Origin: a virus
Lineage: Duplodnaviria; Heunggongvirae; Uroviricota; Caudoviricetes
Strand: one strand, 5' to 3'
Virus record (IMG/VR): IMGVR_UViG_3300026382_000013
Location: 17,331 to 81,330 of that record
DNA length: 64,000 bases
Below the pieces are notes generated by a model that was not told the origin of the DNA, searched no databases, and saw only the letters and a list, made by a program, of their open reading frames with translations. Position numbers and translations under genes: made by a program. Positions 4,657-52,421 of this stretch are shown one piece after another (position 1 is the first letter of the stretch; each line of letters opens with the position of its first letter).

Positions 4657-5831
4657 CAGAAAAAGAAATCTACGTTATAAAAAATAACATTTCACAGCAA
4701 CTTAAATCTAAAGAAGTAGCTCCACTTATTATCGCAGGTAAACCAGGTACAGCTAAATCATCTACTATTAAATTACTTGCTAAAGAGTTAGATATGCATT
4801 TATTAGATGTATCATGTCCAACACTAACTATCGAGTATTTATCTGGGCTACCTGAAGAGTACCGTACACCAGAATTTGATAAATTTAATGTAATGAATGT
4901 AGATACTTTCTCTACTAAATGGTCTGTACCTGAACTTATAGCTAATGCTAATACATTATCAGAAACAAAACCTACTATCCTACTATTAGACGACTTTCAT
5001 ATGGTGCAACCTCACTTACAAGCATACTTCTTTAAATTACTTTTAGAACGTATGATTGGTAATTATAAATTAGCTGACAATGTTGTTATCATAGGTACTA
5101 TGAATGATTCTGAAGAAGCTGGTATGAATCAAATTAATTCAGCAGTACGTAACAGACTTGCTATTTTACCTATTGAATTTAATTTTGAGCATTGGTTTGA
5201 AGGCTATGGTAAATTCCTTCATTATCTAGTAGCATCATTTCTTAAAACTAAAGAATCTTATATTTCTGAAGATGAGTCTACAGGTATTGAAGGTTACGCT
5301 ACAGCTAGAGCTTGGAGTGCTATTGCAGCAGAACTTAAAGGAATTCCATATGAGTTATTACCAACATACGCTCCTATGATTGTTAAAACTCAAGTAGGCA
5401 AAGAAGCAGCAGAAGCATTTACTAAACATTTACTATATATCAATGCTGTAGATTTTAAAGCAATAGTAGAATCTAAAACTATCATTAACATTTCTAAGTT
5501 AGATCCACTAGAAGCAGTTATACATAGTTACATCCCAAATTTTATTAACACTGTAAGTGATGGTATCTTCTTTTTAAATCTATTAGATGCGAACCATAAA
5601 GAGGAAGCATTTATTGGATTTACTATAGCAGAAATATACAATAAATATATTTCAGAAACTAGTGAGGAGTTGACAGATGGATTAAATTTTATAATTAATA
5701 CTATAGTACAGAAACCTTTTTCTAAAGATAACTATGATACTATTACGCCTAAGGAAGTTAAAGCGATTAAAGAGCTTAAACTCAAACATCAAGATGTAAT
5801 TATGAGTATTGCATCAACATACTTAATATAA
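4653..5831 (+). CDS. AAA+ ATPase, MoxR/CobS-like
   Basis: Walker A GKPGTAKS, Walker B LLLDDFH, sensor-like VVIIGTMND. Paired with the vWA gene downstream. Confidence 0.7.
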   Translation: MTEKEIYVIKNNISQQLKSKEVAPLIIAGKPGTAKSSTIKLLAKELDMHLLDVSCPTLTIEYLSGLPEEYRTPEFDKFNVMNVDTFSTKWSVPELIANANTLSETKPTILLLDDFHMVQPHLQAYFFKLLLERMIGNYKLADNVVIIGTMNDSEEAGMNQINSAVRNRLAILPIEFNFEHWFEGYGKFLHYLVASFLKTKESYISEDESTGIEGYATARAWSAIAAELKGIPYELLPTYAPMIVKTQVGKEAAEAFTKHLLYINAVDFKAIVESKTIINISKLDPLEAVIHSYIPNFINTVSDGIFFLNLLDANHKEEAFIGFTIAEIYNKYISETSEELTDGLNFIINTIVQKPFSKDNYDTITPKEVKAIKELKLKHQDVIMSIASTYLI

Positions 5832-5841
5832 AGGACATATT

Positions 5842-7227
5842 ATGAATAAAAAAGAATTCCTATACGACACTAAACGTCTAGTATACAAAGAAGCTATTAA
5901 AGGCTTAAACCAATCGTTAGGACAATCTAAAACAGCACAAGCATCATTAGGTATGTTAGTTAATGTACCATTAGAGATTGAACTACGTAAAGTAGAGACA
6001 CTACCTAAAATTACTAAAAAGTTTAAATCTCTTGCTAGAAATGCACATATGTATTTAAAGCATGATGAAGGGACTATTGTTTTATCATTCTTCTACACAA
6101 CGGATAGAGAACTACCAAAACTTTATAAGTCTATTGAAAAAAATACACACTACTTTACATACTTATACTTTAGAGAGTTACTTATGTTATCTCGTGGGTA
6201 TAACACGTACGCTTTTTACAAAAAAGCTAAAGCAGTAATTCAGGCTAATTCGTCAATCCCTGTAGAACAATGTCAAGCTGTTATGAATATTGCTTGTTAC
6301 ATCTCTATAACTAACTTCATCTCAGATGTTTATAGTTTAGTTGGGAAATCTAGTGAATTTGAAAAAATCTCTAAATATGAAGCTTATGATTCTTCGTATA
6401 AAAACAAAGATGTCTTTAAAATTTTAAAAGCTATCTTACCTGGTATTACAACTGACTCTTTTGAGGAATTTCACACATGTGAATCAGAATTTGGTGCTAC
6501 AGCTTTTTCAGATAATAAATTAGTTAATGATGAATACGATGCTATCATTACTGATCTAGGAGAATCTGTAGAAACTACTTTCAAATCAACATCTAAAGGT
6601 TCAGCTACAGCTAGTATTTTTGGTACTGAATTTGAAGCTAACACAAAACTTAAAACTGGATGGTTCAAGAAACTAAAGAAAACTTTACAACGTATTGTTT
6701 ACTATCGTACTAATGACTTTGAGTCAACTTGGGGAAGCCTAAATTCAACATACAGACATAAGTTTAAATCTCCTAAAGCACAATACAAATCTACTGAATT
6801 AGAACTTGTATTATCTATTGACCATTCAGGATCTATGGAAATGGAAGAATTAGCACGTATTGCTGGTGTAATTAAAAAACATGGTAAATCTATTGCTAAC
6901 TTAACTATTTTAATCCATGATACTGAAATTACTAAGATATTTACACTTAAACCTTCTGAAATAGATCTTGAAGGTGATGCATTTAAAAAAGCCTTACTAA
7001 CAAGATACAATGCTGGAGGTACATCTCACTATCATGTGTTTAAATGGTTAGTTGAGAATACTACTGATATGTCTAAGCTTTTATATTTATCATACTCAGA
7101 TAATTGTTCAGACATCCCAGAATCTTATGCTAAATTTCCAACATTACGTGATGCCAATATGGTATTCGTTTCAACTATAGACAATCCAGTAAATATCACT
7201 GGAACTACAGACATTACTTTAGAGTAA
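5842..7227 (+). CDS. von Willebrand factor A domain protein (CobT-like partner of the AAA+ ATPase)
   Basis: MIDAS motif DHSGSM (DxSxS) at aa ~317. Gene order AAA+ then vWA. Confidence 0.65.
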   Translation: MNKKEFLYDTKRLVYKEAIKGLNQSLGQSKTAQASLGMLVNVPLEIELRKVETLPKITKKFKSLARNAHMYLKHDEGTIVLSFFYTTDRELPKLYKSIEKNTHYFTYLYFRELLMLSRGYNTYAFYKKAKAVIQANSSIPVEQCQAVMNIACYISITNFISDVYSLVGKSSEFEKISKYEAYDSSYKNKDVFKILKAILPGITTDSFEEFHTCESEFGATAFSDNKLVNDEYDAIITDLGESVETTFKSTSKGSATASIFGTEFEANTKLKTGWFKKLKKTLQRIVYYRTNDFESTWGSLNSTYRHKFKSPKAQYKSTELELVLSIDHSGSMEMEELARIAGVIKKHGKSIANLTILIHDTEITKIFTLKPSEIDLEGDAFKKALLTRYNAGGTSHYHVFKWLVENTTDMSKLLYLSYSDNCSDIPESYAKFPTLRDANMVFVSTIDNPVNITGTTDITLE

Positions 7228-7273
7228 TGCATACCTCACTTTATGTGGGGTAACCCTATTTATAAGGCCTTAC

Positions 7274-7990
7274 ATGGATGAATTTCAATATAAACTAGAA
7301 CTAATAAAAGTAGAATCTCAAAAACTTACAATAAAAAGTATAGAAGATACTATACGAAATACATGTAGATCAGGATCTTACACTTTACCACAAAAATTAG
7401 ACATTAAGTCAGAACTTTATAAATTAAGTATACTCTTGAGATACTATAAACTATTCAATAAAAGATCTGCTAAATCCTTACCTCAACACATAGAAGATCA
7501 TATTATAGGAAGAACAGCATTAGTATTTAATAACACATTTTCTCATAGTATCTATGAACCACTACAAATAACTAAAAAAGAATTTGATGAATTTTTTAAA
7601 TACGCTAATATAATTCAAGTACAGTTAGAAGCAGTGGTAGTTGCTAATTATTCTAGACTAGTTGGAAAAGCTACTAAATTTCTTGATATCATAAATTATA
7701 GTTCTCTCAGCATTAAAACAAAATTTTACTACACTACACCTATAACTATAAAAGGAGAGATACGTAAAATTTCCTCTACATACGCTCTAAATAGTACCTG
7801 TGACCCCATCTCAAATATATCAGCTAAAGCAGTAGAACTTTCTATATATGCTTCTAAACTAAAGCCTACAGAATGTTATTATATAAAGCATCTACTACAG
7901 AATGATATAGGTATTACTAAAATTGATACTTATCAAAATGAGCTAGCTGCTGGTATTAGATATCTAAAAAGGCTACGAAATGCTAACTAA
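7274..7990 (+). CDS. hypothetical protein (238 aa)
   Basis: ORF preceded by a small hairpin (acctcac ttt at gtggggt) at 7238-7256. Confidence 0.5.
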   Translation: MDEFQYKLELIKVESQKLTIKSIEDTIRNTCRSGSYTLPQKLDIKSELYKLSILLRYYKLFNKRSAKSLPQHIEDHIIGRTALVFNNTFSHSIYEPLQITKKEFDEFFKYANIIQVQLEAVVVANYSRLVGKATKFLDIINYSSLSIKTKFYYTTPITIKGEIRKISSTYALNSTCDPISNISAKAVELSIYASKLKPTECYYIKHLLQNDIGITKIDTYQNELAAGIRYLKRLRNAN

Positions 7991-9413
7991 GTCTTATGCA
8001 ATATACGATATAGAGTCACATCTTATTAATGAGTGGGGAGCATACCACACTCAATATATATTCTGTATAGCTGTTAAACGTGTCATAGCTGGTGTAGAAG
8101 AGCCAACAAAAATTTATACACCTAATGCTATTCTAGATGCTGATGGAGACTTTAAACAAGCCTTAGAAGCTATTAATTCATGTGACTATAGAGTTGGCCA
8201 TAACATTACAAGATATGATGATATAGCGATGGAAGAATTAGGTGCTGTATTCACAAATAAACCATTTGATACTTTATTGTACACTCAAGTTATGTACACT
8301 AAAGACCAATTAATGTCTATGGATTATGGTATTGAAAACTTCCCTAAAGACTTATATGGTAACTTCTCACTTAAAGCCTTTGGGTACCGTCTAGGACAAG
8401 AACAAAAACTAGAATTTGAGCAATTTGATAAACTTACAACTGATATGCTGGTATACTGTAAACGTGATGTAGATGTCACGTATAATTTGTTTAAACATAT
8501 TATTAATTCTGATAGGTTACCAAATGCCTATTTAATGCAATTAGAGCACGATACATCTACAATAATATCAATGTTAGAACGTGATGGTTTTTATATGGAT
8601 AAGGATAAAGCTCGTAAACTATCTTTAAAAATGACATTAGAAATGCAAGCTATTCAAAATATGTTAGCTAAAGTATTTAAACCAATGTACTTACCAGAAG
8701 GTAAGCCACAAAAGACTAATAATACTATTAAACGTAAGCTATACATACCAAACACTGCTTATAAAGATTTATGGTACTTAAATTCATATTTCCACTTTAA
8801 GCCATATGGTAAGCCTCTGCGTAAATACAAATCTGGTAAAATAAGACATTTTGGTAAAAGAGCTTTTAAATGGTTTACCACACCTCATACAACAGTTATA
8901 ACAACTAAAGATGGTGAGTTTCAAAACATTAAGCTTACTAAATTTAAAGCTACTGATAAACAAATTATATGGTGGTTTAAAAACCTTTATAACTATACAT
9001 TTACAACCTATACTACAAAAGGTAATATACGTGTAGACAGAGATGTATTAAAAACATTTGATGAGTACTTAAAAACTAATAGAAACTCAATTACTAGATT
9101 TGCTAATTATACTAATGAAGAATTCTCAACAGAACTTGAAGCTATATCTAAACTTATGCGATTCCTTAAACTTAAAAAAGATTTATCACAATTATCTGGT
9201 ACTGATAAATCTCTATTATCAGTTCAAAGATTAGATGGTACTATCACTACCCGTATTAATCAAAATGGTACTGTTACAGGTCGAGTTACATCATCTTCTG
9301 TAAATATGAACCAAATACCTTCATCACAAGAATTTAGAGAATTATTTACAGCACCTATTATGTATACAATACCTGATAAATTATATTATGAGTTAATGGA
9401 AACACTATGTTAG
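7980..9413 (+). CDS. family-A DNA polymerase, N-terminal fragment (3'-5' exonuclease domain through the O-helix region)
   Basis: Exo I YDIES, Exo II VGHNITRYDD, Exo III YCKRD, and TGRVTSSSVNMNQIP (TGRLSSxxPNLQNIP). The frame ends just before motif A. Confidence 0.8.
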   Translation: MLTKSYAIYDIESHLINEWGAYHTQYIFCIAVKRVIAGVEEPTKIYTPNAILDADGDFKQALEAINSCDYRVGHNITRYDDIAMEELGAVFTNKPFDTLLYTQVMYTKDQLMSMDYGIENFPKDLYGNFSLKAFGYRLGQEQKLEFEQFDKLTTDMLVYCKRDVDVTYNLFKHIINSDRLPNAYLMQLEHDTSTIISMLERDGFYMDKDKARKLSLKMTLEMQAIQNMLAKVFKPMYLPEGKPQKTNNTIKRKLYIPNTAYKDLWYLNSYFHFKPYGKPLRKYKSGKIRHFGKRAFKWFTTPHTTVITTKDGEFQNIKLTKFKATDKQIIWWFKNLYNYTFTTYTTKGNIRVDRDVLKTFDEYLKTNRNSITRFANYTNEEFSTELEAISKLMRFLKLKKDLSQLSGTDKSLLSVQRLDGTITTRINQNGTVTGRVTSSSVNMNQIPSSQEFRELFTAPIMYTIPDKLYYELMETLC

Positions 9414-10055: not shown

Positions 10056-10880
10056 ATGGGTATTTATTGGGTCCTAACTGATTTCTCAGGACAAGAGAAT
10101 GTTAATTTAGCACACTATTTAAAACCTATAGATAACGGAAACCTTGAAAATGTAATTGAAAATGGCTCTAAAGACAATAGTACAGACCTCCATTCACTAA
10201 ATGCAATAGCATGCGGAGTAAGTAGAAGTGACTCAAAAGCCATATTTTTCGGGCTTTTATACGGTTCATCAGCAACTTTAACTGGTTTCACTATATTAGG
10301 TGACAAACTATATACAGATTACACACAAGACGAATTCGATAAGATGTTTAAAAAACTATCTAAACGAACTATAGAACTTGAAGGTACTAAATACTATCCT
10401 ATCAAAAAAGGGCAATTAGTACTATTCAATGATAAATTAATCATTCAAGCTATATTTGGATTACATGTTCAAACTAAATTACGCAAAAATACTAAAGGTC
10501 TTGAGAAACTTGAGGAACAGTTTAAACAAGAAGCTAAGACTAACGGTTATGTTGAGCTTCCTTTAGGCCGTAAGATATATATAGACTCAGACCACAAAGC
10601 CCTTAATTATTTTAACCAAGGTTTAGGTGGACTTGCTTTTAAAGTCTACTTACGTATATTTTATAATACATTATATAATAAAGGTATTTACATTAATGAG
10701 CATTATAGACTACAAGCTTGTATTTATGATGAGATTGATATAATCGCAGACCCAAATCATGTTGATACTATTGTGCAAGTTATGAATGACACTTACGAAT
10801 TAACATCTAAAGAGCTAGCACTTAATGTCAGATACACGGGAGAAACACTTAAGGGCGTAGATTGGGATTCTTGCCATTAA
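10056..10880 (+). CDS. family-A DNA polymerase, C-terminal fragment (palm motifs A, B, C)
   Basis: Motif A LTDFSGQENVNLAHY, motif B RSDSKAIFFGLLYGSSA (RxxxKxxxFGxxYG), motif C CIYDEIDII. Confidence 0.8.
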   Translation: MGIYWVLTDFSGQENVNLAHYLKPIDNGNLENVIENGSKDNSTDLHSLNAIACGVSRSDSKAIFFGLLYGSSATLTGFTILGDKLYTDYTQDEFDKMFKKLSKRTIELEGTKYYPIKKGQLVLFNDKLIIQAIFGLHVQTKLRKNTKGLEKLEEQFKQEAKTNGYVELPLGRKIYIDSDHKALNYFNQGLGGLAFKVYLRIFYNTLYNKGIYINEHYRLQACIYDEIDIIADPNHVDTIVQVMNDTYELTSKELALNVRYTGETLKGVDWDSCH

Positions 10881-13664: not shown

Positions 13665-13958
13665 ATGCAACTACCTAGAGATATCCTACAACGTTTAGTA
13701 TTTCTATATCCAGAACTTAATGCTAGTATGTACATGCATGAAATTATGTACCATTTTACGAAAGAGACTGGTATAGATATTATAATACAAGATAAAAATG
13801 TACGGACAGATGTATTGAATATACTCTCTAACTATGAATACGGAATGTATGCATTATGTGTAGAAAAAGAAGTAGATACTAATAGACCTCATAATATAAC
13901 TAGTATACACGATTACTACTACAATGTTAGTAAAGATAGGTTTGTAATATGCAAGTAA
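13665..13958 (+). CDS. hypothetical protein (97 aa)
   Basis: ORF with overlapped start (TAAAATG). Confidence 0.45.
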   Translation: MQLPRDILQRLVFLYPELNASMYMHEIMYHFTKETGIDIIIQDKNVRTDVLNILSNYEYGMYALCVEKEVDTNRPHNITSIHDYYYNVSKDRFVICK

Positions 13959-14302
13959 CATACCATAAAGACCTTACAACATTTATACGTAAATTATATT
14001 TCTTAGGTAAACATAATATACTAAATAATAGCTATTTAGAAAATGATGTATATCACCATAAATATATAGATATACATTTACCAGAGAACTCTAATGGCTA
14101 TAAGTTTTTACTAAGTACCTTACGATTTGGAGATAATACTAGTCCATTCATAGGTACTGATAATGAACACTATAAATTCTTAACAGCAAAACCTACAAAA
14201 GATTTAAGTATATTTTTAACAACTACTAAAGTATTAGATACTAATTACACAACACCTCTCTCATCACACCTAGAAAGGATACTTAATGAAACCACCACAT
14301 AA
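13949..14302 (+). CDS. hypothetical protein (117 aa)
   Basis: ORF. Confidence 0.45.
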   Translation: MQVTYHKDLTTFIRKLYFLGKHNILNNSYLENDVYHHKYIDIHLPENSNGYKFLLSTLRFGDNTSPFIGTDNEHYKFLTAKPTKDLSIFLTTTKVLDTNYTTPLSSHLERILNETTT

Positions 14303-14817
14303 AATTTTAACTCTGTTTAAAAAACTTAAATTCTTAGGGGGGTACAGACTATGCTTCTATAGATGGAGGACAATGTTATTGTGATTATAAACTAGACATC
14401 CAAGGGATTAGTAATATTTATGTTATGATAAATAAAGCACTTGCTGAAGATACTTGTAATAAGTTAACAGAATGGGAAGATTTTGAAAATTTATGATTAT
14501 ATGCTGAAGTTCATCAAGTAATCTATATACTTTAGGCTAACCTGCAATGCTACTACATACTACTTCCTGCGGAAGCTTAACGTATGTAGTACATGTTTGG
14601 TTACCTACGTATATATCCCACTTACTCACTTACTCAGCATGGGAGAGAGGTGTATATATTATTTATTATATTATAGTCCTATATTAATATATGTGTATAG
14701 GCATCATCTTTTATAAAACCTTTACAAAGTACTACGAGCAGGGGTCTACAAAGGTTTTAGTATGTAACCTATAGAGGTGACATTTGTATACATTATGTAA
14801 CTTACAGAGGTTACATA
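14303..14817. promoter_or_regulatory. 515-bp non-coding, repeat-rich region: candidate replication origin or regulatory hub
   Basis: Nested palindrome: arms 14551-14560/14582-14591 enclosing cttcctgcggaag. 24-bp direct repeat at 14654-14677 and 14844-14867. 10-bp inverted arms at 14714-14723/14750-14759. ATGTAACCT/AGGTTACAT at 14762-14770/14808-14816, plus tatgtaacctatagaggt vs tatgtaacttacagaggt. Confidence 0.45.
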
Positions 14818-15057
14818 ATGATATATCTAATAAATAGCTACACATATATTATTTATTATACTATAGTAGTGTATGTGACTTTTTACATTAAATCTTCTGT
14901 AAGCTCGTTAATAACGTACTTTCAGAAGGTTTTTATAAGGAGTAAATATTATCTAGCATATAGTGTGACAGATAACATTTACTCTATTTATGGTATACTA
15001 TGGATAAGATTTACTCCAGAGGTTTGGAGTAAGTTATTTAACTATCAAAGGACTGAT

Positions 15058-15480
15058 ATGAGTAATTATATCACTACAACACTTAAACAAAAATCAAAAC
15101 GGAGGGCTACTAATGTGTATTTAACACTTAAAGATAAAAAAGCACTTATGGAAGAATGTGGTATACCAGCTATGGTTTTATTTGAGTTTTATCTATCTAA
15201 ATCTTCATTACCTAATTATGAATATTCTGATGGGGCAACAGCAAAAGCTTTAGGGTGGACAATACATACAGTAAAAAACCATAGACTTAAACTTCAACGA
15301 GCTGGTTATTTTCTTAAAACAAAAGCTATATACACAGATGGTAGATCTTTAACACATGTATTGCTAGGCAAGGATGTGGTAACCTCTGCAAAAGAGCAAG
15401 TAGCCTTAGCACAAAAAGAACCTAATGAAACTATTACAACAGATACTGTAATAATAAATTTATTTGATAAAGAAACTTAA
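15058..15480 (+). CDS. winged-helix/HTH DNA-binding protein (initiator- or regulator-like), paralog 1
   Basis: aaaggactgatATG at 15058. The 80-aa N-terminal extension in the ORF track is low-complexity read-through of the repeat region. HTH-like ATAKALGWTIHTVKNHRLKLQRAGYF. Confidence 0.55.
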   Translation: MSNYITTTLKQKSKRRATNVYLTLKDKKALMEECGIPAMVLFEFYLSKSSLPNYEYSDGATAKALGWTIHTVKNHRLKLQRAGYFLKTKAIYTDGRSLTHVLLGKDVVTSAKEQVALAQKEPNETITTDTVIINLFDKET

Positions 15481-15760
15481 ACAAAAATCAGCTAGGAGAG
15501 CTACAATGTCATATCTACGAATGGAAGATAAAAGAAACATTATAAAAGAATGTAATGATTCAGCTGTAATACTATTTGAATACTACTTATCTAAAGCTGA
15601 TATAGATTCTTTTGAGTACACGGATGAAAAAGATGTAAGATTAAAATTACAAAAAACAGGTTACTACTTACAACGCTCAGGGGGCCTTAGAGATGGTTCA
15701 ATAGTAATATACTTAGGAAAAGATTCTTATACTAACAGAGAAATTGAGGCAAAGGTATGA
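15464..15760 (+). CDS. winged-helix/HTH protein, paralog 2 (tandem duplicate)
   Basis: Shares LKQKSxRRAT..L...DK....EC.....LFE(F/Y)YLSK....(F/Y)EY(S/T)D with paralog 1. The conserved N-terminal motif lies upstream of the SD+ATG at 15506, reachable only from TTG at 15464. Confidence 0.5.
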   Translation: MIKKLKQKSARRATMSYLRMEDKRNIIKECNDSAVILFEYYLSKADIDSFEYTDEKDVRLKLQKTGYYLQRSGGLRDGSIVIYLGKDSYTNREIEAKV

Positions 15761-16101
15761 ATGCAATAGATACTTGGAATAAACTTTTATTTGTATCTAA
15801 TTACAAAGAAAAATTAATTAATGCTAGCTATATTGAAAATAATTTACTACTGATACACTCTAGTATAGATATACATATACATACACAAAATGATGATAGT
15901 AATCTATTAAAAGAGTTACTACATACTGGTATATTTGTATATTTAGTTGATTCATACACTGGTATAGATGATGAATTGCACTATACAAGTTATTTTACTA
16001 ACAAAACTTTAAATACTCATATTTACATTATTATAAATAAAGCATTAGACTATCAATCTTCAACACCAATAAAGGATCTACTAGATGAAAGAATTACTTA
16101 A
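15757..16101 (+). CDS. hypothetical protein (114 aa)
   Basis: ORF. Confidence 0.45.
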   Translation: MNAIDTWNKLLFVSNYKEKLINASYIENNLLLIHSSIDIHIHTQNDDSNLLKELLHTGIFVYLVDSYTGIDDELHYTSYFTNKTLNTHIYIIINKALDYQSSTPIKDLLDERIT

Positions 16102-16450
16102 TTACTTAAAATTTATGGTACCAGATGATATATTAAATCATGTTTACTTTCCAGATACGTTACTAAATAGAGATAACCCAAAAAAACACTTACAAGAAGG
16201 TCAGTACATAGATATATATTACAAACATGATACAGGCACAAGAGATGTACGTAAACTACTAAGTGTTTTTAAATGCTGTAAGGAAAAGGTACCCACACAT
16301 ACGGTAATGCATTTAACAGCTAGTAGGTTACTAAGATTAGAATCTTTAAGCATTAATATTAATTTATTTATATATAAAGATACTTACACATGTGATGAGG
16401 ATTACTCACTACCATTCAATGAGGTTTACAATGAATACTGTAAATCTTAA
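16085..16450 (+). CDS. hypothetical protein (121 aa)
   Basis: ORF. Confidence 0.45.
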   Translation: MKELLNYLKFMVPDDILNHVYFPDTLLNRDNPKKHLQEGQYIDIYYKHDTGTRDVRKLLSVFKCCKEKVPTHTVMHLTASRLLRLESLSININLFIYKDTYTCDEDYSLPFNEVYNEYCKS

Positions 16451-33538: not shown

Positions 33539-36500
33539 CTATTTAAAGATGTTTAATATAGGTATCGTAGTACCACCATCTAATAACCTCATAGCACTAT
33601 CTATTGGGCTAAGTCTGCCACCTAATGTTTGGAATATATTACTATGGAATATACCAGCATCTGGGCTTAATCCTAACTTCTGTGCACTTATATCCATTAA
33701 TACCCTAAATCCATTCTTTCTTAATCTACTGATCTCTACTCTTTGGATGTTACTCCAATACTTATAGAATGCTTCAGGACCAATAGCATCAAGATATTGT
33801 ATAGTCTTACTATTTATTACTTTACTATAGTTGATAAAGTTATCAGTAACTTCTCTTCGCATCTCTTCACTTTCCCTACCATGCTCAATACCATACCAAT
33901 ATAATGCAGCTCTAAAATGGAAGTCACTTTCTTGTGTTACAGCTACCATAAATCTACCTAATTCCGACTTGTTAGTAAGGAATACCGTTTGTATTGCTTG
34001 ATGTAATAAGCTATTTTTACCAGCTACTTTATCTAATTGATCTGTTACAGCTTGTGTAATCGGATTGTTATCTTCTATATCTGCTATATCTTCTACAATA
34101 GCTTGGAACATACCCGCATCCATTAAAGGTTTCAAGGGGTTATGTGCCATTCTATCCTCTATCTCAGCAAGCTTCTTAACATACTTATCTCTTTCCTTAC
34201 CTTCACTACTATGCATCATTCTTATAGCTTGTAGTCTTTCCTTATCATCTATTTTCCATTGTCTTAAACTTTTTCTACTTAACCATAATTTACTCATAGC
34301 CTCCATTGGGCCCATACCTGAGTATACTAAAAATTTAGCATTACTTACTATATTTCCATATATTGTTGATGGCATTTTAACTACGACATTACTTTTAAGT
34401 AGTTGTGCAAAACTCTTTACATAGTGTTCAGCTACCCTAATCTTTCTTTCAGTCTCTTTACTTACTTTAATCCTAGTTTTACCTATACGTTTGATATCCA
34501 TTATACTTGGCTCATTATATGCAAACAATTGATTTATCAAATCTTTTCTTACATACAATACTCTATCTTCTGCATCTGGACCATGCATCTCTCTATTCTT
34601 TTGTCTTATGTAGTCTCTAGCATCTTTAGGTAGTAATGCCCAATACTCTTCAGCTTCAGTTTTTAACCCATACTTGCCTTCATCTTTTAGATCTTCATAA
34701 CCACTTTCATACAGTTTTCTTCTATCCTCTTCATTTAGGTTAAGCTCTTTAGGTTGTATTTTTATATACAGATGTTGTGTATCTTTAAATTGCTCACCAG
34801 ATGTATCTAAATCTTTTGAGTCATCCATAACTATATCTACAAGCTTTCTATTCTGTTCATTAGTAAGTTTCATTGTACCTACTTGACCAAAACTTCTACC
34901 TAACTTCTCAACACCATTAACACTTAATTCTAGGTACTTAATAGCGTCATCTTTACCTATTGGGTATCTAAAGTCTATTATGAAACCTCTATCATTGTAT
35001 ACAGGCTGCATAAGCTCTATGTCACCATCTTGTTCACTATAGCCACTGTTATCTTCATATCTTTCTATAGCTTCATTACGTACTTTAATAAACTTCTTAA
35101 CCATTTGCTTGTCATCAAGTTCAGGAGCTGACATTCTTACTTTGTCACTTAATAGTAACCCTGGTACTGTTCTTCTTTGTAAACTTGCAGCGCCATCTAC
35201 ACGTTTCCCTATACCTGCATTGACATTAACATATACACCATACTCAACATTATCAGTATCATTGTATGCTTCAATTAGATTACGTACTAGTTTGTATCCT
35301 TGTGCTTCCATTTCTTTACGCTTATACACAGGAGCATACTTCATGTCTCTATTGATATGTGTTTTATCCCTTGCCTGGCCTTTAACAAAGTCATGGTATT
35401 CACCAGATTCCTGCATTTCTTCCGCAGTTGCTTCTAACATACCTTTGGCAGTGTCTAAATAAAACTTTACACCATCCGAGTCAATATCTATAAGTTCAGC
35501 TAACTCATTTCTACCTCTAGACATTCTTAAAGCTTCTAATGTGATTAGCTTGTCGATAGCCTCTACGTACACTTCTTCACTACCATCTCTATCTACATCC
35601 CATACATGACCATACATTAATGCTATATTTCTTGCATTAGTTCTTAGACCCTTACCTACAACAAGGTACCTTGCAGCTTCTAGTATATCTCTCATGTACA
35701 TATGTTTTTGGAATGTTGGTAGGTCTTTAAACTCTGTGGCTACTATCTTATTCACTTCTTCATCTATAGCTTTATCACTACTAAGTAACTCTTTAGTTCG
35801 TTTCATCCCAAGACTTCTAGCAACTACTTGTAAGTCTGTACTAAGTGCTGCACTCTCTAAAGCTTCTCTATACTTCTTGTTAGCTAAGGCATTTATATCT
35901 ATCTTTGTAAAAGCTTCTGTTATATCTTGTACTGTACCTTTAAAATTGTGATCTCTAAGCCTATCTACCATACTTCTAAACTGCATTGTCATATCTGTTA
36001 TCTGTACAAGTGTTCTTCTACCTGCCATAAAGTCTGACATAACTGCATGTACAAATGAACCTTCACCTACTCCTAAGTCCATCAGAAGCTTACTTTGAGC
36101 TATAGCTAGACCTTCATCACCTGTTGTATGTTTAAGTGCTTTATTGAGCTTCTTTAGAGTTCTAATTGTTCCCATAGCTTTAATAGCTGACTTGAAGTAA
36201 TTATCTGTACTTTTAGGCTCATACTTATGTAAGTCATCCAGTATCTTTTGGATAATCTTTTCAGTCTCCATACCTCTTTTAGCTTTAATTGCTTCATACA
36301 TCATATTTTGAATAGCTTTAGATTTGTATAGTGCTCTATCTATCATATCTGTACTTACTGATAACTTCTTTAACCACTCATTCTCACTAAGAAGTTTTTT
36401 AATTTCTTCCTCTGTTGCTTTGCTACCTGCTTTTGGTCCTTTTTTACCATCATCCCCATTCATCTTATCTATAGCCCAATTCACTGGTACACTTACTTTA

Positions 36501-37867
36501 GCATCTAGTGTATCTAGTACTTCATCAATCTTACCTACTATCTTCTCATTGATTGGCATGCCTTGTCTTTGAGTAGCTTTACCAGCATATCTATCTTGTA
36601 CTTGTGTTAAAGCATAAACTAACTTTGTACTCTCTTCTAGTAGTGTATCACCTTTTATCTTTTTAGCTTTACCTAGCATAGCTTGAAATGTATTCCAGAA
36701 CCATCTAGTCACTACATCGAGTATAGTCTCATTAGCCTTTTTCTCTTTCATTATCTTTTCAGGAGCTTTCTTGTCTAGTGCTTGCATTAAGGCTTTATTT
36801 GTCATTAGATGGGCCATAAACTCTTGTAGTCTAATACCAGCTAGCTTTTGGTTATATGTATTACTAGCTGTCCCAAAGATATACTCATATCTTTCTTTAG
36901 CCTTATCAATCTCAGCTTCTGTGTACACACCTTCATACTCAGGTAGGAAATCTTCAAATGTAATTACTTTCTGTGCATACTTATATAAGTCTCTAATTTG
37001 TAGTTTTAAGTCAGCACCTGCTGTTGGTATCTTACTATTGAATACCCAATCTAATGCTGCATGCACTGTTTCATGTACTAAAGCTTCTTCATTAGTCATT
37101 GTGAATAAATTCCTAGCTTCTTCTCCTAAGCTACCCCTGATTATACGTATCTTAGCACCTTCAGCAGTTGGGTCAAACATTGCTATTGGTTCTACTATCT
37201 CTTGTACTTTATCTGTTGTTACTTGAATACCAAGTTTTGCTATCTCTTTAGACATCTCCTGAAGCTTCATAGACACTTCTTTAAGTTGTGCACTATGTTC
37301 TGCATCCCAGTCTCCACCTAAAGCTTCTTGGTCAGCTTTCTGCATCTCAGCTTGTATATTCTCTAGTGTACCATCTATCGTATTTGCACTATTAAACATT
37401 TCATTTATTTCTTCATATGTCATGCCATCATTATTATACAACACAGCATCTATGTTGAACTTTCTCAACATCTTAGTCATAGCTTCCTTCGAGTATGTAA
37501 TCTTACTATCTACCCCATCAGGTGTTAATCCATTTCTAGTTACAATAGCATAACCATTTTTACCTTTATCAGTAACATGACTTACTTTATACTTATTTGG
37601 ACCTAACTGCACTACACCTGTAATCTTTACTCTATAGTTCTTATGTCTCGTTCTAGCTTTATGTGTACTAGCATTTCTACTGTAGTACACAGACTGTATT
37701 TGGTACATATCACCAGCCAACTCTTTCTGTACACTTCTAGCTCTATTTCTAGCATCCATTGTAGCCATCTCAATAGCAATATTTGGATCTAGTTGTGGGT
37801 TATCCGCTATAGCTTGTTTTTTAAGCTCATCATTAAGCTCTAGGGTATCTATGTTACATTGTGCCAT
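33539..37867 (-). CDS. giant virion-associated protein (1442 aa), probable internal/ejection protein, with an HExxH motif
   Basis: Last gene of the late operon. LVHETVHAALDW (zincin-like HExxH). The size class matches podovirus internal core proteins. Function inferred. Confidence 0.5.
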   Translation of the reverse strand: MAQCNIDTLELNDELKKQAIADNPQLDPNIAIEMATMDARNRARSVQKELAGDMYQIQSVYYSRNASTHKARTRHKNYRVKITGVVQLGPNKYKVSHVTDKGKNGYAIVTRNGLTPDGVDSKITYSKEAMTKMLRKFNIDAVLYNNDGMTYEEINEMFNSANTIDGTLENIQAEMQKADQEALGGDWDAEHSAQLKEVSMKLQEMSKEIAKLGIQVTTDKVQEIVEPIAMFDPTAEGAKIRIIRGSLGEEARNLFTMTNEEALVHETVHAALDWVFNSKIPTAGADLKLQIRDLYKYAQKVITFEDFLPEYEGVYTEAEIDKAKERYEYIFGTASNTYNQKLAGIRLQEFMAHLMTNKALMQALDKKAPEKIMKEKKANETILDVVTRWFWNTFQAMLGKAKKIKGDTLLEESTKLVYALTQVQDRYAGKATQRQGMPINEKIVGKIDEVLDTLDAKVSVPVNWAIDKMNGDDGKKGPKAGSKATEEEIKKLLSENEWLKKLSVSTDMIDRALYKSKAIQNMMYEAIKAKRGMETEKIIQKILDDLHKYEPKSTDNYFKSAIKAMGTIRTLKKLNKALKHTTGDEGLAIAQSKLLMDLGVGEGSFVHAVMSDFMAGRRTLVQITDMTMQFRSMVDRLRDHNFKGTVQDITEAFTKIDINALANKKYREALESAALSTDLQVVARSLGMKRTKELLSSDKAIDEEVNKIVATEFKDLPTFQKHMYMRDILEAARYLVVGKGLRTNARNIALMYGHVWDVDRDGSEEVYVEAIDKLITLEALRMSRGRNELAELIDIDSDGVKFYLDTAKGMLEATAEEMQESGEYHDFVKGQARDKTHINRDMKYAPVYKRKEMEAQGYKLVRNLIEAYNDTDNVEYGVYVNVNAGIGKRVDGAASLQRRTVPGLLLSDKVRMSAPELDDKQMVKKFIKVRNEAIERYEDNSGYSEQDGDIELMQPVYNDRGFIIDFRYPIGKDDAIKYLELSVNGVEKLGRSFGQVGTMKLTNEQNRKLVDIVMDDSKDLDTSGEQFKDTQHLYIKIQPKELNLNEEDRRKLYESGYEDLKDEGKYGLKTEAEEYWALLPKDARDYIRQKNREMHGPDAEDRVLYVRKDLINQLFAYNEPSIMDIKRIGKTRIKVSKETERKIRVAEHYVKSFAQLLKSNVVVKMPSTIYGNIVSNAKFLVYSGMGPMEAMSKLWLSRKSLRQWKIDDKERLQAIRMMHSSEGKERDKYVKKLAEIEDRMAHNPLKPLMDAGMFQAIVEDIADIEDNNPITQAVTDQLDKVAGKNSLLHQAIQTVFLTNKSELGRFMVAVTQESDFHFRAALYWYGIEHGRESEEMRREVTDNFINYSKVINSKTIQYLDAIGPEAFYKYWSNIQRVEISRLRKNGFRVLMDISAQKLGLSPDAGIFHSNIFQTLGGRLSPIDSAMRLLDGGTTIPILNIFK

Positions 37868-38949
37868 TAGTTACATTCCTCAATCATTTTGTTTATTATA
37901 TCTTCTATACTGTTATTCGTAGCTTTATTTAGTGTACCTTCATCTACTATACTATCTACAGATGCTATAGCATATCCACCTGTGCTAGTACCAAAGCCTT
38001 TACTCTTAAGGTATCTAGTGATGCTCTCAAATAGTTTTTGAATACTGCTCTGCTCGCTCTGTGGAAATTGCTTAATGAACTCTTTCCGTATGTTAGGTTC
38101 TGCACTAAGTATAGCAACTAGTTCAGCGACTTGAGCAAACTTTGTAGGTCTTTTAGCTGCATACATTAATCTCTGTTTAAGTAAATTCTGTTCCAGTGTG
38201 TGGTCTGGGTCAAACTCTTTAACCATATCTATTGTATCTAGCAAATACTTAACTCTGGTATCACTCATATGGTTGCTAAGCCATTCAGCTGTTAGGTAAT
38301 GTCTTATTTCATGTGCAGTGTACACTTCATACATCGCCTCATCTACATGCTCATTAGGCTTGACAACAGTTATTACGCCCTCATTGTACCAGAACTCTTC
38401 ACCTTCTACTACAACACCTGGATACTCTTTTTTAAACTTAACATTAGCTGCTTTTATCTCAGCTAACTCTTTGGCATCTACATATACCTCATTAAGTTCT
38501 GAACCTGCATCAGTAGCTCCTAGAGCAGGGTTAGACTCTTTACTCACATCAATAGTAGCTTCTGTGGTATTGTACACATCAGCCAACTCTTCATAGAAGT
38601 TCTCACCTTCGTACACAGCAAGTGAATCCCCATTACTAAACTCATAACTCCATCTTTTATCTCCACGGGAGCCTTCTTGGTCATCCCAGAATGGTCCTTT
38701 CTCTTTCACTATATCGTCTAGTGTAACCTTCTCACCATCTAATACAAATGTATCACCTATGTTAGGTACTTTCCCTACATTACTAGTTTTATTGCTGTTA
38801 GGTAACTTACTTTTGTCTATTACATCTAGCATACTACCTATACTTTTAAAATTCTTATCTACTGTTAAGTACTCACCACTAAATTTACCCAACTTCTTAA
38901 GTTCATTATTTACAGCTTCTACTGCTGCTTCTACTGTACATGACTTCAT
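37867..38949 (-). CDS. virion-module protein (360 aa) with HExxH motif
   Basis: YTAHEIRHYL. Start overlaps the stop of the 2393-aa gene. Confidence 0.45.
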   Translation of the reverse strand: MKSCTVEAAVEAVNNELKKLGKFSGEYLTVDKNFKSIGSMLDVIDKSKLPNSNKTSNVGKVPNIGDTFVLDGEKVTLDDIVKEKGPFWDDQEGSRGDKRWSYEFSNGDSLAVYEGENFYEELADVYNTTEATIDVSKESNPALGATDAGSELNEVYVDAKELAEIKAANVKFKKEYPGVVVEGEEFWYNEGVITVVKPNEHVDEAMYEVYTAHEIRHYLTAEWLSNHMSDTRVKYLLDTIDMVKEFDPDHTLEQNLLKQRLMYAAKRPTKFAQVAELVAILSAEPNIRKEFIKQFPQSEQSSIQKLFESITRYLKSKGFGTSTGGYAIASVDSIVDEGTLNKATNNSIEDIINKMIEECN

Positions 38950-38951
38950 AC

Positions 38952-41900
38952 CTAACAGTCCTTAAATTTATTTAATATACTGACTATATTCTCAGCTACT
39001 TTTTTATCTTTTTTAGCTATTTTTTCTATAGCCTTAGAGACCTTATCAACTGGCCCTATATTTGGTATTATACTGTTATTATTCTTTGTATACGCTATTT
39101 TACTAATAACTTTTTTTACACTAGCCTCTAGCTTAGTCTCAGGTTCTCTAGCTGTGTATTCCATTACTCCAGTCTCTACACCTGCACCTTCTAAGGCAGC
39201 ATGCTCAATGTATAGATTCTTACCATCCATTAATGCAACTCTCCCAGCTTCACTATTCTTTTGTAACTCTTCCATGCTTCTATACTGTTTCTGTACTGTA
39301 GTAGGGTTAAAGTTATTATCTTTAAATAACTCCCCACCTATTATTTTATTTAGGTATGTTAGCCCACCATCTACATCATTTCCACTAACAATAGCTTCAA
39401 TAGCATTAGACTCTCTTTCCATGAATGCTTTGACATTACCTACATTCTTCCTACCTTTAAGGTTTTGTTTTAACTTTTCTAAAGCATATACTCTATTTAA
39501 TTCCTCAATACCTTTTGCACCAATAACATTTAGTGTTTTATTGAGGCTGTCTAACATTTCAGTAGGTAAGCTGTATGTCTGCATCAACTCAATAACAGCT
39601 TCATTATACGCTTGTGTGCCTGGCAGTGCATTCTCTATATCTAGCACATTTGCATCATGTATTCCTATAGAGTTGAATTTACTTAGTACTTTAGCTTGCA
39701 GCATCGCATCTTGAAAGTGGACTGTTATTGGTGCACCTCCTGTGTAACTTCCAATTAGTTTGTACACATCAGCATACGCACTCATCTTCTTACCATTACT
39801 CAGGGGTACACTACCTTGGTTATCCATATTCGTATCTACATTAACTTCGTACTCACCTTTTTCCCTAGATGCTATGACACCTAGGTCAGTATCTTTATCA
39901 GCGAATGCTACCTTGAATGTTGGTAGCACACCTTGTAATTCAGCTAGTACTGTATTTACCTCTTCAGTTGTTAATGTAGTAGCTGTCTTACCTGTTGCTT
40001 GTGTCTTCTCTTCAAGCTTTTTATCCATAGCTTTTATAACCCTTGGCTCTGCTGCTTTGAACATCATAGCGAATGTGCTATTAACTGTTTTAGTAGCTTT
40101 AATCAAATCTCCATACTGCTTCTCAAATGTTTCTGTTAGTGGTCCTTCTACAGCGATTGTTATACTATTTGCTAAGGCTTTCTCCTCGTTCAGTGTAAGC
40201 TTGAAATTTAGTAAATCTTTATTCTTATATGCTTTTCTAAGTCTATTGATAGCATCTGAGTTAGGATTTGTGATATTTAGTAACTCTGTAAGAGCCTTTA
40301 GTAGCTTTACCCTGTCTTTGTGGTCTGTAGCATTGTGAGCATCTTCTAACATCTTATACATATTGTCTACACCAAGCCATCCTTTGTTAGCTGCAATAGT
40401 CGCAAGAGCGGCACCGTAATTGAAAGTCATAAATGGATCTTTCATAAACCCTCTAGATATTGTCTCTTGTAAGCTCTCACCTAGTAGTTTAAATATAGTT
40501 CTTGTACGTTCTCTATCACCTTCTGGTAAACTTTCTATCTCTTCATATGTAACTTTAGCTGGTGCTTCATAGGCATCTTGTACATCACCTTCTTTCCACT
40601 TACCATATGTCTTAGTCTCTTCACCCTCTTTCACTTCAAACAATCCAGCTCTGGCTAGCTCTTCATGTACCTTACCTATATCTATACCGCTACCATCTGG
40701 TGCTATGAACACTGGCATTTGCAGTAGCTTGAGGAAGTAACCAGATGTAATAGCATCTGTCTCAAGTGTCATACCTGTTCTAAACATTTCTCCGTTGTTT
40801 TCAGCTTCTTTATATGCTCTATACTCCACTAACCCCAGTAATGCTAACTCTGGTTCATTTTTAGCATCAGTGGTCATTAGATATGCATATGCATCTTTTA
40901 GGTTATCATATGTATCTAGTTTATCTAATATACCTTTTAACTCTTCCATAGAACCTTTTATAGTCTTTTTATCTACTGCTACATCGAATGCTTGCCCAAT
41001 ACCCAACATGAACATAGTTTTTTTCTCGTTTGTGTCTACATCCACCATTTTATCCATTACAGCATGTCTATGAAGCTTTTTATCTTGCCAGTTAAATCTG
41101 TTAGACTTAATACCAAACCTATTATTAGACATGATGTACCACTGTGACCACATCTTAGACTCTTTAACCATTTCTACAGTTTCTTTGAAATACTTAATTG
41201 TATCTGCTATAGCTCTATTTTTACCATTAACAGCAGGTCTTCTTACAACATGTACATTCTTATCTACGTCAGTAATCTCTCCCATATACACGCTCATAGC
41301 CTTTTCACCTATCTCATCGAAGCCTTTTACAAATCTCTGGTTGAACTGTCTGGAGTCTTTAGTTTGTTTTTCAACGGCATCTTTACTTACTTTTGGTACT
41401 GTACCTTTGATATCCCCACTAGGGCCTTCTATACTTATTTCTTCTCTATCTACTTTAGGCTCTACTAGATGTATATCAGTGTCTCTTCTAGCTACTCCTA
41501 GAACATCTGTAAGTTCTTTTATACCTGCCTCTAATGGATTTATCTTTTTAGTTTTTAACCCTTCTTCAGTAAGCTTATATACTGTTATACTCTCATTACT
41601 AGAATCTTCCCCAAATACAGCAGATTTCTTTTTAACCTCTGGTTTAAGTAAGTTAGCCTTACTAGCTAGTCTCATGGCTAATAGTCCTAACTCTACTTTT
41701 AGTTTAGGAGCTAGTTCCTCGTTGTTAGCTTCAGCAGTAGCATCTTTATTCTTAATTCCAAGGTATTTGTACACATACTTCCCAATGCTATTAGCTTCAG
41801 CAGTTAGTAGTCCATCAACATCTTTAATTCTTTCTCGTATCTCATTTGTAACTGGAGCTTTTTTATCCATACCTAACATAGCTCTTACTTCAGCATCTGA

Positions 41901-46133: not shown

Positions 46134-46188
46134 GTTAATCCTTTACGCAGTATAATATTAGAATTATACTGTATACAGACTTAATAGA

Positions 46189-48238: not shown

Positions 48239-48305
48239 ATTATATCCTTTACTTACACTATTTTATAGCTCATTATACTACACTTAATATTAAGGGTAGA
48301 TTATT

Positions 48306-52362: not shown

Positions 52363-52421
52363 TTGCTAATTCCTTTAATTTTATTCAGTTATGTATTATA
52401 CTCTAATTTACTTTAAAGACA

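Follow-up and report, generated by a model that had tools for sequence, protein, structure and literature searches.

Origins of the lambda type contain iterons with dyad symmetry, an AT-rich segment, and a palindrome, and RepA_N origins are located within the rep gene. The DnaD-N-terminal-type fold oligomerizes in DnaD. To our knowledge, the start of replication in N4-like phages is poorly defined, and no origin mapping for these phages was found in the literature searched. Their middle genes are normally transcribed by a phage RNA polymerase. [quoted passage not shown] In the autoregulated Aca cassettes of anti-CRISPR operons, the regulator is a small DNA-binding protein whose gene belongs to a variable accessory operon, repeated and partly palindromic sites lie over the −35, −10, and +1 of that operon's own promoter, the site sequence covaries with the protein, and no further sites are present in the phage genome (PMC6765145, PMC9410906).

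The locus described here, from a 64-kb window (the whole stretch of DNA analyzed), resembles the Aca cassettes in these respects. It differs from them in that the protein has a DnaD-type winged helix in place of the classic Aca HTH; the regulator gene opens the operon instead of closing it; the three sites are phased at 31–32 bp; and repression is predicted. The source phage is N4-like and encodes an N4-type virion RNA polymerase. As the initial annotation had indicated, replication genes surround the locus, which is flanked by a primase, a split PolA, and a Dda-like helicase. That annotation had proposed an origin of replication with its initiator or regulators, and the regulator half of this hedge is the better supported. 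Our preferred reading, to which we assign a probability of roughly 55%, sees a composite control region here, made up of a terminator, a promoter-operator under autoregulation, and a gene for a winged-helix protein that resembles the N-terminal domain of DnaD. Its features are listed below; those given without a strand have none assigned.

14286–14535, plus strand: pseudogene, left over from a 124-aa gene that belongs to the p117/p114 paralog family
14547–14595: nested palindrome H1, with outer 10-bp arms (14551–14560/14582–14591) and inner CTTCC-TGC-GGAAG (14563–14575)
14620–14653, plus strand: conserved block with two tandem copies of ACTTACTC (14620–14635), then the purine run GGGAGAGAGG
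14652–14692: AT-rich element with direct-repeat copy 1 (14654–14684), the least stable 40-bp duplex
14714–14759: inverted repeat TAAAACCTTT-N26-AAAGGTTTTA, arms 14714–14723/14750–14759
14762–14816: two 22-bp palindromes (9-4-9), ATGTAACCTATAGAGGTGACAT and ATGTAACTTACAGAGGTTACAT, unique in the window
14817–14876: patch that is variable in the comparison with L001, with AT-rich copy 2 (14844–14874)
14890–14937, plus strand: hairpin H5 (stem-loop 14890–14932) with covariation, then TTTTT
14940–14953, plus strand: operator-like site A, GAGTAAATATTATC, invariant in L001
14971–14984, minus strand: operator-like site B, GAGTAAATGTTATC, over the −35/spacer of the predicted promoter
14991–14999, plus strand: predicted extended −10 element TGgTATACT of gene 1 (ATAACA-16-TATACT plus the upstream TG; 9/12)
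15003–15016, minus strand: operator-like site C, GAGTAAATCTTATC, at approximately +1 of the predicted promoter, invariant in L001
15008–15039, plus strand: hairpin with a 12-bp stem in the predicted 5′ leader, in which site C pairs with a degenerate inverted copy of itself
15058–15480, plus strand: wHTH1, a 140-aa winged-helix protein of the phrog_21584 family with a DnaD-N-terminal-like fold
15464–15760, plus strand: wHTH2, a paralog of wHTH1, which may start at TTG 15464 or ATG 15506

The gap described originally, 515 bp from 14303 to 14817, is indeed the largest in the plus arm by an ATG-ORF criterion, but its boundaries needed correction. Its right end is a spurious ATG, and alignment of the family sets the start of gene 1 at 15058. 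On the left side, the 124-aa gene is intact at 2737–3111 of L001, a contig approximately 90% identical to the window, and the window copy has lost 125 bp after 14337, and a TGG codon in it has become TGA (W to stop). Because 14286–14535 is a decayed gene, the true non-coding DNA is 14536–15057 (522 bp). This is a real conserved non-coding control region, and the proposal that it is functional was borne out by the comparison with L001: the non-coding blocks differ by 7%, versus 24–28% at synonymous sites (pS 0.24–0.28). Both strands fold much better than shuffled sequences (z = −5.4 for plus and −6.1 for minus). A search of Rfam, even at a permissive E of up to 5, returned only tRNAs. A different view of the gap, as a collapsed terminal repeat, was rejected because the gene order matches that of N4 and puts the termini outside the window.

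All of the repeats reported initially are present and nonrandom. H1, which had been described as a 10-bp inverted repeat enclosing a second palindrome, folds with a dG of −16.6 (z = −3.7), and 14536–14600 has a single substitution relative to L001, at the central loop base 14569. The block at 14620–14653 has none; in L002 there is a GA insertion within the purine run. The nearest-neighbor dG of 14652–14692 is −35.1, compared with a window mean of −48.7 (SD 3.2), which ranks first in the 64 kb. The two copies of the AT-rich direct repeat, 190 bp apart, share an exact match of 21 nt, for which 0.1 occurrence is expected by chance per 64 kb. Copy 1 differs from L001 at 3 of its 31 positions. Copy 2 evolves neutrally, judging from the alignment with L001, in which the surrounding patch (the only neutral one) has 67% identity plus 17 gap columns, approximately the synonymous divergence. 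A role for the AT-rich repeats as a genome-wide promoter motif was considered and rejected. A minus-strand promoter-like match, TATACA-18-TATAAT, overlaps the AT-rich element at 14652–14692. The 10-bp inverted pair with a 26-nt spacer, also reported earlier, has invariant arms, and its spacer differs from L001 at 6 of 26 positions, which is the neutral rate. The 9-bp inverted repeat that had been seen to recur directly corresponds to two 22-bp palindromes on ATGTAACCT (14762–14783 and 14795–14816), which are 33 bp apart from start to start and invariant relative to L001 except for the final base, 14816. Together, H1, the AT-rich minimum, the inverted repeat at 14714–14759, and the two palindromes make up approximately 350 bp of strongly conserved distal DNA that is under purifying selection and is not accounted for by the autoregulator model. 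The distal palindromes have no counterpart in the other lineages.

Hairpin H5 had been overlooked. It folds identically in L001 (dG −15.5 and −20.9; z = −4.6 and −4.8), and three substitutions between the two sequences preserve pairing: a compensatory change of T-A to C-G at 14895/14927, a change of T.G to C-G at 14893, and a change of the inner pair U-A to U.G at 14913. With its stable stem followed by UUUUU, H5 is probably a plus-sense intrinsic (Rho-independent) terminator. A consensus scanner missed it because its loop exceeds 8 nt. Directly upstream of the sites in L012 and L008, there is a comparable A-tract, stem, and T-run.

Also overlooked was the sequence GAGTAAATnTTATC, which occurs three times, at 14940 (plus), 14971 (minus), and 15003 (minus), all at this spot (0.25 match expected in 64 kb); like the palindromes, it is absent from the rest of the window. 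Sites A and B are 31 bp apart and sites B and C 32 bp apart, and relative to the ATG the three lie at approximately −118, −87, and −55. The only change from L001 in site B is at the degenerate central base, 14976. The predicted extended −10 element is conserved in L001. Against the autoregulator model, the predicted promoter is a weak match to the consensus, and a phage RNA polymerase is the usual reader of middle genes in N4-like phages. The leader hairpin at 15008–15039 has three G.U pairs on the plus strand and is followed by AAAGGA (15047–15052) and the ATG at 15058. A DnaA-box-like sequence, TTATCCATA, overlapping site C was discounted; 8/9 matches are, by our estimate, frequent in AT-rich DNA.

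Distant homologs have similar sites over their promoters. In L012, whose protein is 48% identical, three related sites spaced 32 bp apart (−110, −78, and −46) are arranged around a perfect TTGACA-17-TATAAT. In L008 and L009 (TTGACA-17-TATGAT) and in L010 (TCGACA-17-TACTAT), sites lie over the spacer and at +1. Vibrio phage 12VC501 has three copies of GACAAGATTCTGTC, 30–31 bp apart, and two further sites around TTGACT-17-TATTGT; L014 has a pair of GGACAAATnTGTCC sites at 31-bp spacing. When the Vibrio site was used as the only reference (up to 3 mismatches, 217 kb), 4 of the 19 hits fell within 100 bp upstream of other-lineage homologs, where approximately 0.1 was expected. The type of site varied with the recognition helix: (S/T)(I/V)RK was found with ACAAGAT, NIYK with GACAAAT, xSKV with CACATATnTGTG, and TIHT with GATAAnATTTAC. 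Repeated sites over the gene's own promoter are clear in L012, L008/L009, L010, and 12VC501, where the promoter hexamers follow the sigma-70 consensus; the window has equal site geometry, with a promoter that is a predicted extended −10 only. Because the window site matches the Vibrio site at only 10 of 14 positions and was missed by a matrix derived from the remaining lineages, its assignment depends on how many copies there are, their phasing, and their position. The 24-bp and 18-bp repeats had been suggested as the targets of the protein; the promoter-proximal triple is the likelier target. Its geometry matches the phased sites of the homologs over sigma-70-type promoters, an arrangement typical of autoregulation.

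The two downstream genes encode winged-helix paralogs, as had been proposed: their products are 41% identical (E = 3e-24), and both match phrog_21584. The AF2 model of wHTH1 is a winged helix (pLDDT 83.6) with a predicted N-terminal strand and C-terminal helix, the arrangement of the DnaD N-terminal domain and RepA_N. The protein is a single domain of 140 aa, with none for recruitment of helicase or primase, and its dN/dS relative to L001 is 0.05. It differs from DnaD, the N-terminal domain of Gram-positive DnaB, and RepA_N (PDB 8ojj, 2v79, 5wtn, 4pta, and 4pt7) in having no significant sequence similarity to them, no C-terminal DnaD-like or host-interaction domain, and no plasmid relatives. 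Its best PDB profile matches are RepA_N proteins, with a weak E of about 0.6, and some of its BFVD neighbors are labeled "replicon initiation" and "RepA-like." In wHTH2, the residues aligned to 59–72 of gene 1, which form HTH helix 3, are missing (a 13-residue alignment gap), as is helix 3 in its model (pLDDT 71.5); L001 lacks wHTH2. The family, which is phrog_21584, has 225 representatives in 1.8 billion clusters and no Pfam entry, and a Pfam search of 42 members gave no family above threshold for any of them.

Our model of an autoregulated cassette behind a terminator would read from left to right as follows: the decayed gene, approximately 350 bp of conserved palindrome-rich DNA, the neutral AT-rich patch, H5, and the wHTH1 promoter, covered by three 14-bp sites that are three helical turns apart. 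H5 and its U-run would most likely end upstream transcription. We infer that wHTH1 binds each of the phased sites, which lie at about −60, −30, and +1; bound there, it would repress its own promoter and, with it, an operon running on through wHTH2, p114, p121, and the helicase gene. wHTH2, with one HTH helix lost and the rest of the fold kept, may modulate wHTH1 through mixed oligomers, but this is speculative. Such an autoregulator would give a winged-helix family of no known function a testable role and a DNA motif. We propose for the family a predicted recognition code, in which helix residues correspond to site sequence, together with a conserved arrangement in which three sites are phased by three helical turns.

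The island that contains the locus (13665–16391) is a lineage-specific insertion, with the core primase on one side and the Dda-like helicase on the other. It is missing in L018, L019, and L020, all of which have the core of primase, helicase, exonuclease, and SSB. From this distribution among the genomes compared, the gap region and wHTH module are accessory. Among 50,697 phage records, a DNA similarity search gave no match, and homologs of the wHTH protein were found only in Vibrio Pacinivirus phages; 72,556 plasmids contained none. In Vibrio phage JA-1 the homolog is within the terminal repeat (PMC3670811), and in other lineages the cassette adjoins the terminase or precedes the polymerase. 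Scans of IMG/VR with wHTH1, the primase, the wider family alignment, and the H1 and triple-site DNA patterns found no relatives, and one scan with alignment A3 found four loci. Two scans of genome collections found no relatives, one metagenome scan found just five loci, mostly short, and a word-indexed protein search with the family profile found six proteins.

It is unlikely that the locus is an origin at which wHTH1, possibly with wHTH2, acts as the initiator. In that reading the protein would bind the phased sites or the 22-bp palindromes, open the AT-rich DNA at 14652–14712, and hand it to the flanking primase and helicase, and promoter binding would be the autoregulation usual for Rep proteins. 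The RepA_N matches, the BFVD annotations, the position between primase and helicase, the AT-rich minimum, the restriction of palindromes and sites to this locus, the selection on the distal DNA, and the location of the JA-1 homolog are consistent with an origin. The reading retains some probability because the nearest structural matches are replication proteins and because autoregulation is also a trait of replication initiators. The argument that iterons plus an initiator make an origin was nevertheless not supported: the module is accessory and lacks plasmid homologs, AT-rich copy 2 is unconstrained, and GC skew, which follows transcription here, has no inflection. Relatives with the same core, including L004, lack the module; its neighbors differ in other lineages; Pacinivirus phages are its sole other carriers among the phage records; and wHTH1 has no domain for recruiting helicase or primase. 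The repeated sites are three phased 14-bp sites and two 22-bp palindromes, and it is the triple that overlaps the predicted promoter, as in the homologs. The AT-rich minimum is approximately 70 bp from the palindromes. Like a lambda-type origin, the locus has tandem palindromic sites beside an easily melted AT-rich segment in a replication gene cluster; however, there are only two palindromes, the module is dispensable in relatives, and the likeliest bound sites are approximately 260 bp from the AT-rich minimum, over a promoter. RepA_N origins differ in lying inside the rep gene. Equally doubtful is a portable, self-contained origin-plus-initiator module in which a winged helix of the DnaD/RepA_N type would bind phased sites beside the easily melted DNA, and which some N4-like phages would have acquired between primase and helicase or, in Vibrio phages, inside the terminal repeat, with the HTH-deleted paralog as a built-in modulator. 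If true, this phage group would gain its first defined origin of replication, and the region would indicate how replication begins in some N4-like phages.

Nor do we favor the idea that the distal part (about 14536–14937) acts as RNA, as either a structured 3′ untranslated tail on primase-operon transcripts or a small RNA of plus sense that starts near the first AT-rich element and ends at H5; its probability is low. The compensatory and wobble-preserving changes in H5 fit only the plus strand, with the U-run next to it; stems are invariant, and the 26-nt loop of 14714–14759 and the linker patch are neutral; only the plus strand tolerates the T.G pairs found in palindrome 2 and in the leader hairpin; and the plus strand folds well. 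However, the minus strand folds equally well, as expected of DNA palindromes, Rfam gave no match to the region, no counterpart was found in other lineages, and covariation is confined to one hairpin because just three near-identical sequences could be compared. Far less probable still is that the inner hairpin of H1 is an N4-type virion RNA polymerase promoter, for transcription or for priming replication. The phage encodes such a polymerase, the 5-bp stem and 3-nt loop fit the size of N4 early promoters, the bottom-strand loop is G-N-A, as on one strand of N4 promoters, in both the window (GCA) and L001 (GTA), and the surrounding 65 nt are almost invariant. N4 promoters differ from it in their central purine, multiple copies, and position at the genome end (PMC4496689): the H1 loop center is C or T, the hairpin is in mid-genome, and a scan for 5–7 bp stems with 3-nt loops revealed no second such hairpin in the 64 kb and no family.

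The primase–helicase junction in these N4-like phages is a hypervariable slot for accessory genes. No anti-defense gene was identified in the window. L004, which has the primase–helicase core without the wHTH gene or the gap region, has different content in the same slot and carries Apyc1 there.

All of the repeats described in the initial annotation were found in place. The AT-rich repeat, the 22-bp palindromes, and the triple repeat (three 14-bp operator-like sites) were each confined to the gap within the 64 kb (chance expectation 0.04-0.25), and 525 nt folded far better than shuffled sequences, with z = -5.4 for the plus strand and -6.1 for the minus strand. The reported gap length of 515 bp reached only to a spurious ATG; family alignment placed the start of wHTH1, the first winged-helix gene, at 15058. 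Because a 124-aa gene that is intact in the metagenomic contig L001 carries a 125-bp deletion and a stop in the window, 14286-14535 is a pseudogene, which leaves 14536-15057 as the non-coding DNA proper.

Conservation was measured against the two nearest contigs, L002 (99% identity) and L001 (about 90%). Neither wHTH2, the second paralog, nor the 121-aa gene preceding the helicase is present in L001. Synonymous sites of the primase, wHTH1, and helicase differed from L001 by 24-28% (dS 0.28-0.35), whereas the non-coding blocks 14536-14815 and 14876-15057 diverged by only 7%, and thus are under purifying selection. The exception was 14817-14876, which holds the second AT-rich repeat and had 67% identity with 17 gap columns. 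Within 14536-14600 only one base had changed, at the centre of the loop in the inner hairpin of H1, the nested palindrome. The arms of the inverted repeat 14714-14723/14750-14759 were unchanged, with 6 of 26 spacer bases different, and the 22-bp palindromes differed only at one terminal base. We conclude that the region is functional and that the original observation was real. The arms of the 22-bp palindromes are the hexamer GTTACA/TGTAAC; Vibrio phage 12VC501 also has two palindromes with this hexamer (6516-6596), some 300 bp ahead of its homolog, but this may be due to chance.

The part of the gap nearest wHTH1 contains the following:

14890-14932, plus strand: hairpin with three substitutions relative to L001, all pairing-preserving on the plus strand, followed by five T's
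14940 (plus), 14971 (minus), and 15003 (minus): three GAGTAAATnTTATC sites, spaced 31 and 32 bp apart

The hairpin lies directly upstream of the triple repeat. Its pair 14895/14927 changed from T-A to C-G, a compensatory change; position 14893 changed from T.G to C-G, and the inner stem at 14913 from U-A to U.G. L001 keeps the fold, and we read the hairpin as a probable plus-sense intrinsic terminator. The GAGTAAATnTTATC sites lie on both sides of a predicted extended -10 element, TGgTATACT.

Distant homologs had a partly palindromic 14-bp site upstream, in 2-5 copies spaced 30-32 bp apart, over predicted sigma-70-type promoters.

Predicted promoters and phased sites upstream of wHTH homologs
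L012: TTGACA-17-TATAAT; sites at -62 to -49, -30 to -17, and +3 to +16 relative to the predicted start
L008 and L009: TTGACA-17-TATGAT; sites covering the spacer and at +1
L010: TCGACA-17-TACTAT; sites covering the spacer and at +1
12VC501: TTGACT-17-TATTGT; three copies of GACAAGATTCTGTC, plus two sites around the promoter

When only the Vibrio site was taken as reference, in 217 kb of other loci 4 of 19 matches (≤3 mismatches) fell within 100 bp upstream of homologs, where about 0.1 was expected. The sites lie at -118, -87, and -55 from the ATG in the window and at -110, -78, and -46 in L012. The window and Vibrio sites are identical at only 10 of 14 positions; the recognition helix is TIHT in the window protein as opposed to (S/T)(I/V)RK, and other recognition-helix variants pair with other site variants. 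In L012 and L008, a terminator-like A-tract, stem, and T-run lies just upstream of the sites. Because this layout is shared upstream of homologs, the conserved unit of the family is predicted to be a terminator, a promoter with phased sites, and the wHTH gene, the arrangement found for autoregulated DNA-binding proteins.

wHTH1 itself is part of a family for which 1.8 billion clusters yielded 225 representatives at E ≤ 0.001. It had no Pfam match and falls in phrog_21584, a group without functional annotation. The AF2 model (pLDDT 83.6) has a winged helix preceded by an N-terminal strand and followed by a C-terminal helix; Foldseek gave a mixture of DnaD N-terminal and RepA_N types with weak E-values, and a PDB profile search gave only RepA_N matches, all non-significant. 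The dN/dS of wHTH1 against L001 was 0.05. The two downstream genes are indeed paralogs (41% identity, E = 3e-24). wHTH2 lacks the residues aligned to wHTH1 59-72, which form helix 3 and the start of the recognition helix, and its model keeps the remaining elements. Their duplication is not recent, since wHTH2 shares more identity with homologs from other lineages (48%) than it does with wHTH1. A tandem pair is also present in another lineage (L014, 435-1033), so the family shows repeated tandem duplication.

The location of the gene varies. In three relatives with primases 46-48% identical (L018, L019, and L020), the Dda-like helicase follows the primase directly or after one small gene, and the junction has neither a wHTH gene nor a long gap. 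In L004 (primase 71%), different genes occupy the junction (4838-9411):

an HNH-plus-winged-helix ORF, flanked by a duplication of about 24 bp of the primase 3' end
a ParB-like ORF preceded by 666 bp of non-coding DNA
an Apyc1 anti-Pycsar gene

The small genes flanking the window gap are lineage-specific and fast-evolving, with dN/dS of about 0.7 (p97 and p117 against L001), a rate typical of host-interaction or counter-defence genes. Three of the small genes, p117 (13949-14302), p114 (15757-16101), and the 124-aa gene (the window pseudogene, 14286-14535; L001 2737-3111), are paralogs. Because relatives lack the wHTH gene and gap and the surrounding small genes are lineage-specific, 13665-16391 is an accessory island between core genes. 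L008, L009, and L010 (primase 35-39%) have the homolog after the primase, behind a gap of 250-340 bp; in Vibrio Pacinivirus phages and L011 it lies near terminase and early genes, preceded by a gap of 550-900 bp. One homolog adjoins an integrase in a bacterial island, and no relative was encoded by PLSDB plasmids. Going by its coordinates, the JA-1 homolog lies within the terminal repeat, which is 1,974 bp long (PMC3670811).

The distal 350 bp, upstream of the variable patch, had no counterpart in other lineages and contains:

14547-14595: H1 nested palindrome
tandem ACTTACTC
14652-14692: the 40-mer with the lowest stability in the window
the inverted repeat whose spacer is free to vary, and two 22-bp palindromes

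These palindromes and the unstable 40-mer, the purely local occurrence of all sites, and the DnaD/RepA-like fold of wHTH1 are what an origin with its initiator might show. However, the module is accessory and its position varies between phages, wHTH1 is single-domain, plasmid relatives are absent, one AT-rich repeat is unconstrained, and GC skew, proposed as a check, showed no inflection. We consider an origin plus initiator unlikely. The alternative in the initial annotation, that the winged-helix genes are regulators, fared better: the mechanism with the best support is a winged-helix cassette that regulates itself and occupies a hypervariable accessory slot, with a probability of roughly 0.55. 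The type of system is already known; the protein family underlying it is uncharacterised. The distal part could possibly act as a plus-sense RNA, as suggested by the one covarying hairpin, but Rfam had no match in the region at the gathering threshold, nor up to E = 5 on 14250-15150. The inner H1 hairpin was rejected as an N4 virion-polymerase promoter: such promoters have a central purine and occur in multiple copies, neither of which applies to this hairpin, and the likeness was in size only (PMC4496689).

The source of the window is an AT-rich podophage of the N4-like group. Its minus arm encodes a portal of N4 type and an N4-type virion RNA polymerase (phrog_2206) in two ORFs, 38952-46133 (2393 aa) and 33539-37867 (1442 aa), with a 360-aa ORF between them (37867-38949, minus strand), instead of in a single protein of about 3500 aa. 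On the plus arm are genes for a family-A DNA polymerase split into two ORFs (7980-9413 and 10056-10880), a 729-aa primase (phrog_2135), the Dda-like helicase, a PD-(D/E)XK exonuclease, Sak4, SSB, ribonucleotide reductase, and PhoH. No GenBank phage record resembled the window at the DNA level. Because N4 gene order is kept, with the early region and termini outside the window, a collapsed terminal repeat was ruled out for the 14.5-kb gap. Upstream of minus-arm late genes (46134-46188, 48239-48305, and 52363-52421) are -10 boxes of the AGTATAAT type and AAAGGA ribosome-binding sites, consistent with late transcription by the host polymerase, as in N4. The interval from the N-terminal polymerase ORF to the primase is about 1.1 kb longer in L002 (3429-7407) than in the window, and L002 has an Endonuclease_7 ORF between the polymerase halves, which suggests a mobile-endonuclease insertion polymorphism. 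In the related N4-like contig L020, a reverse transcriptase gene (RVT_1; 853-1632) lies upstream of the polymerase.
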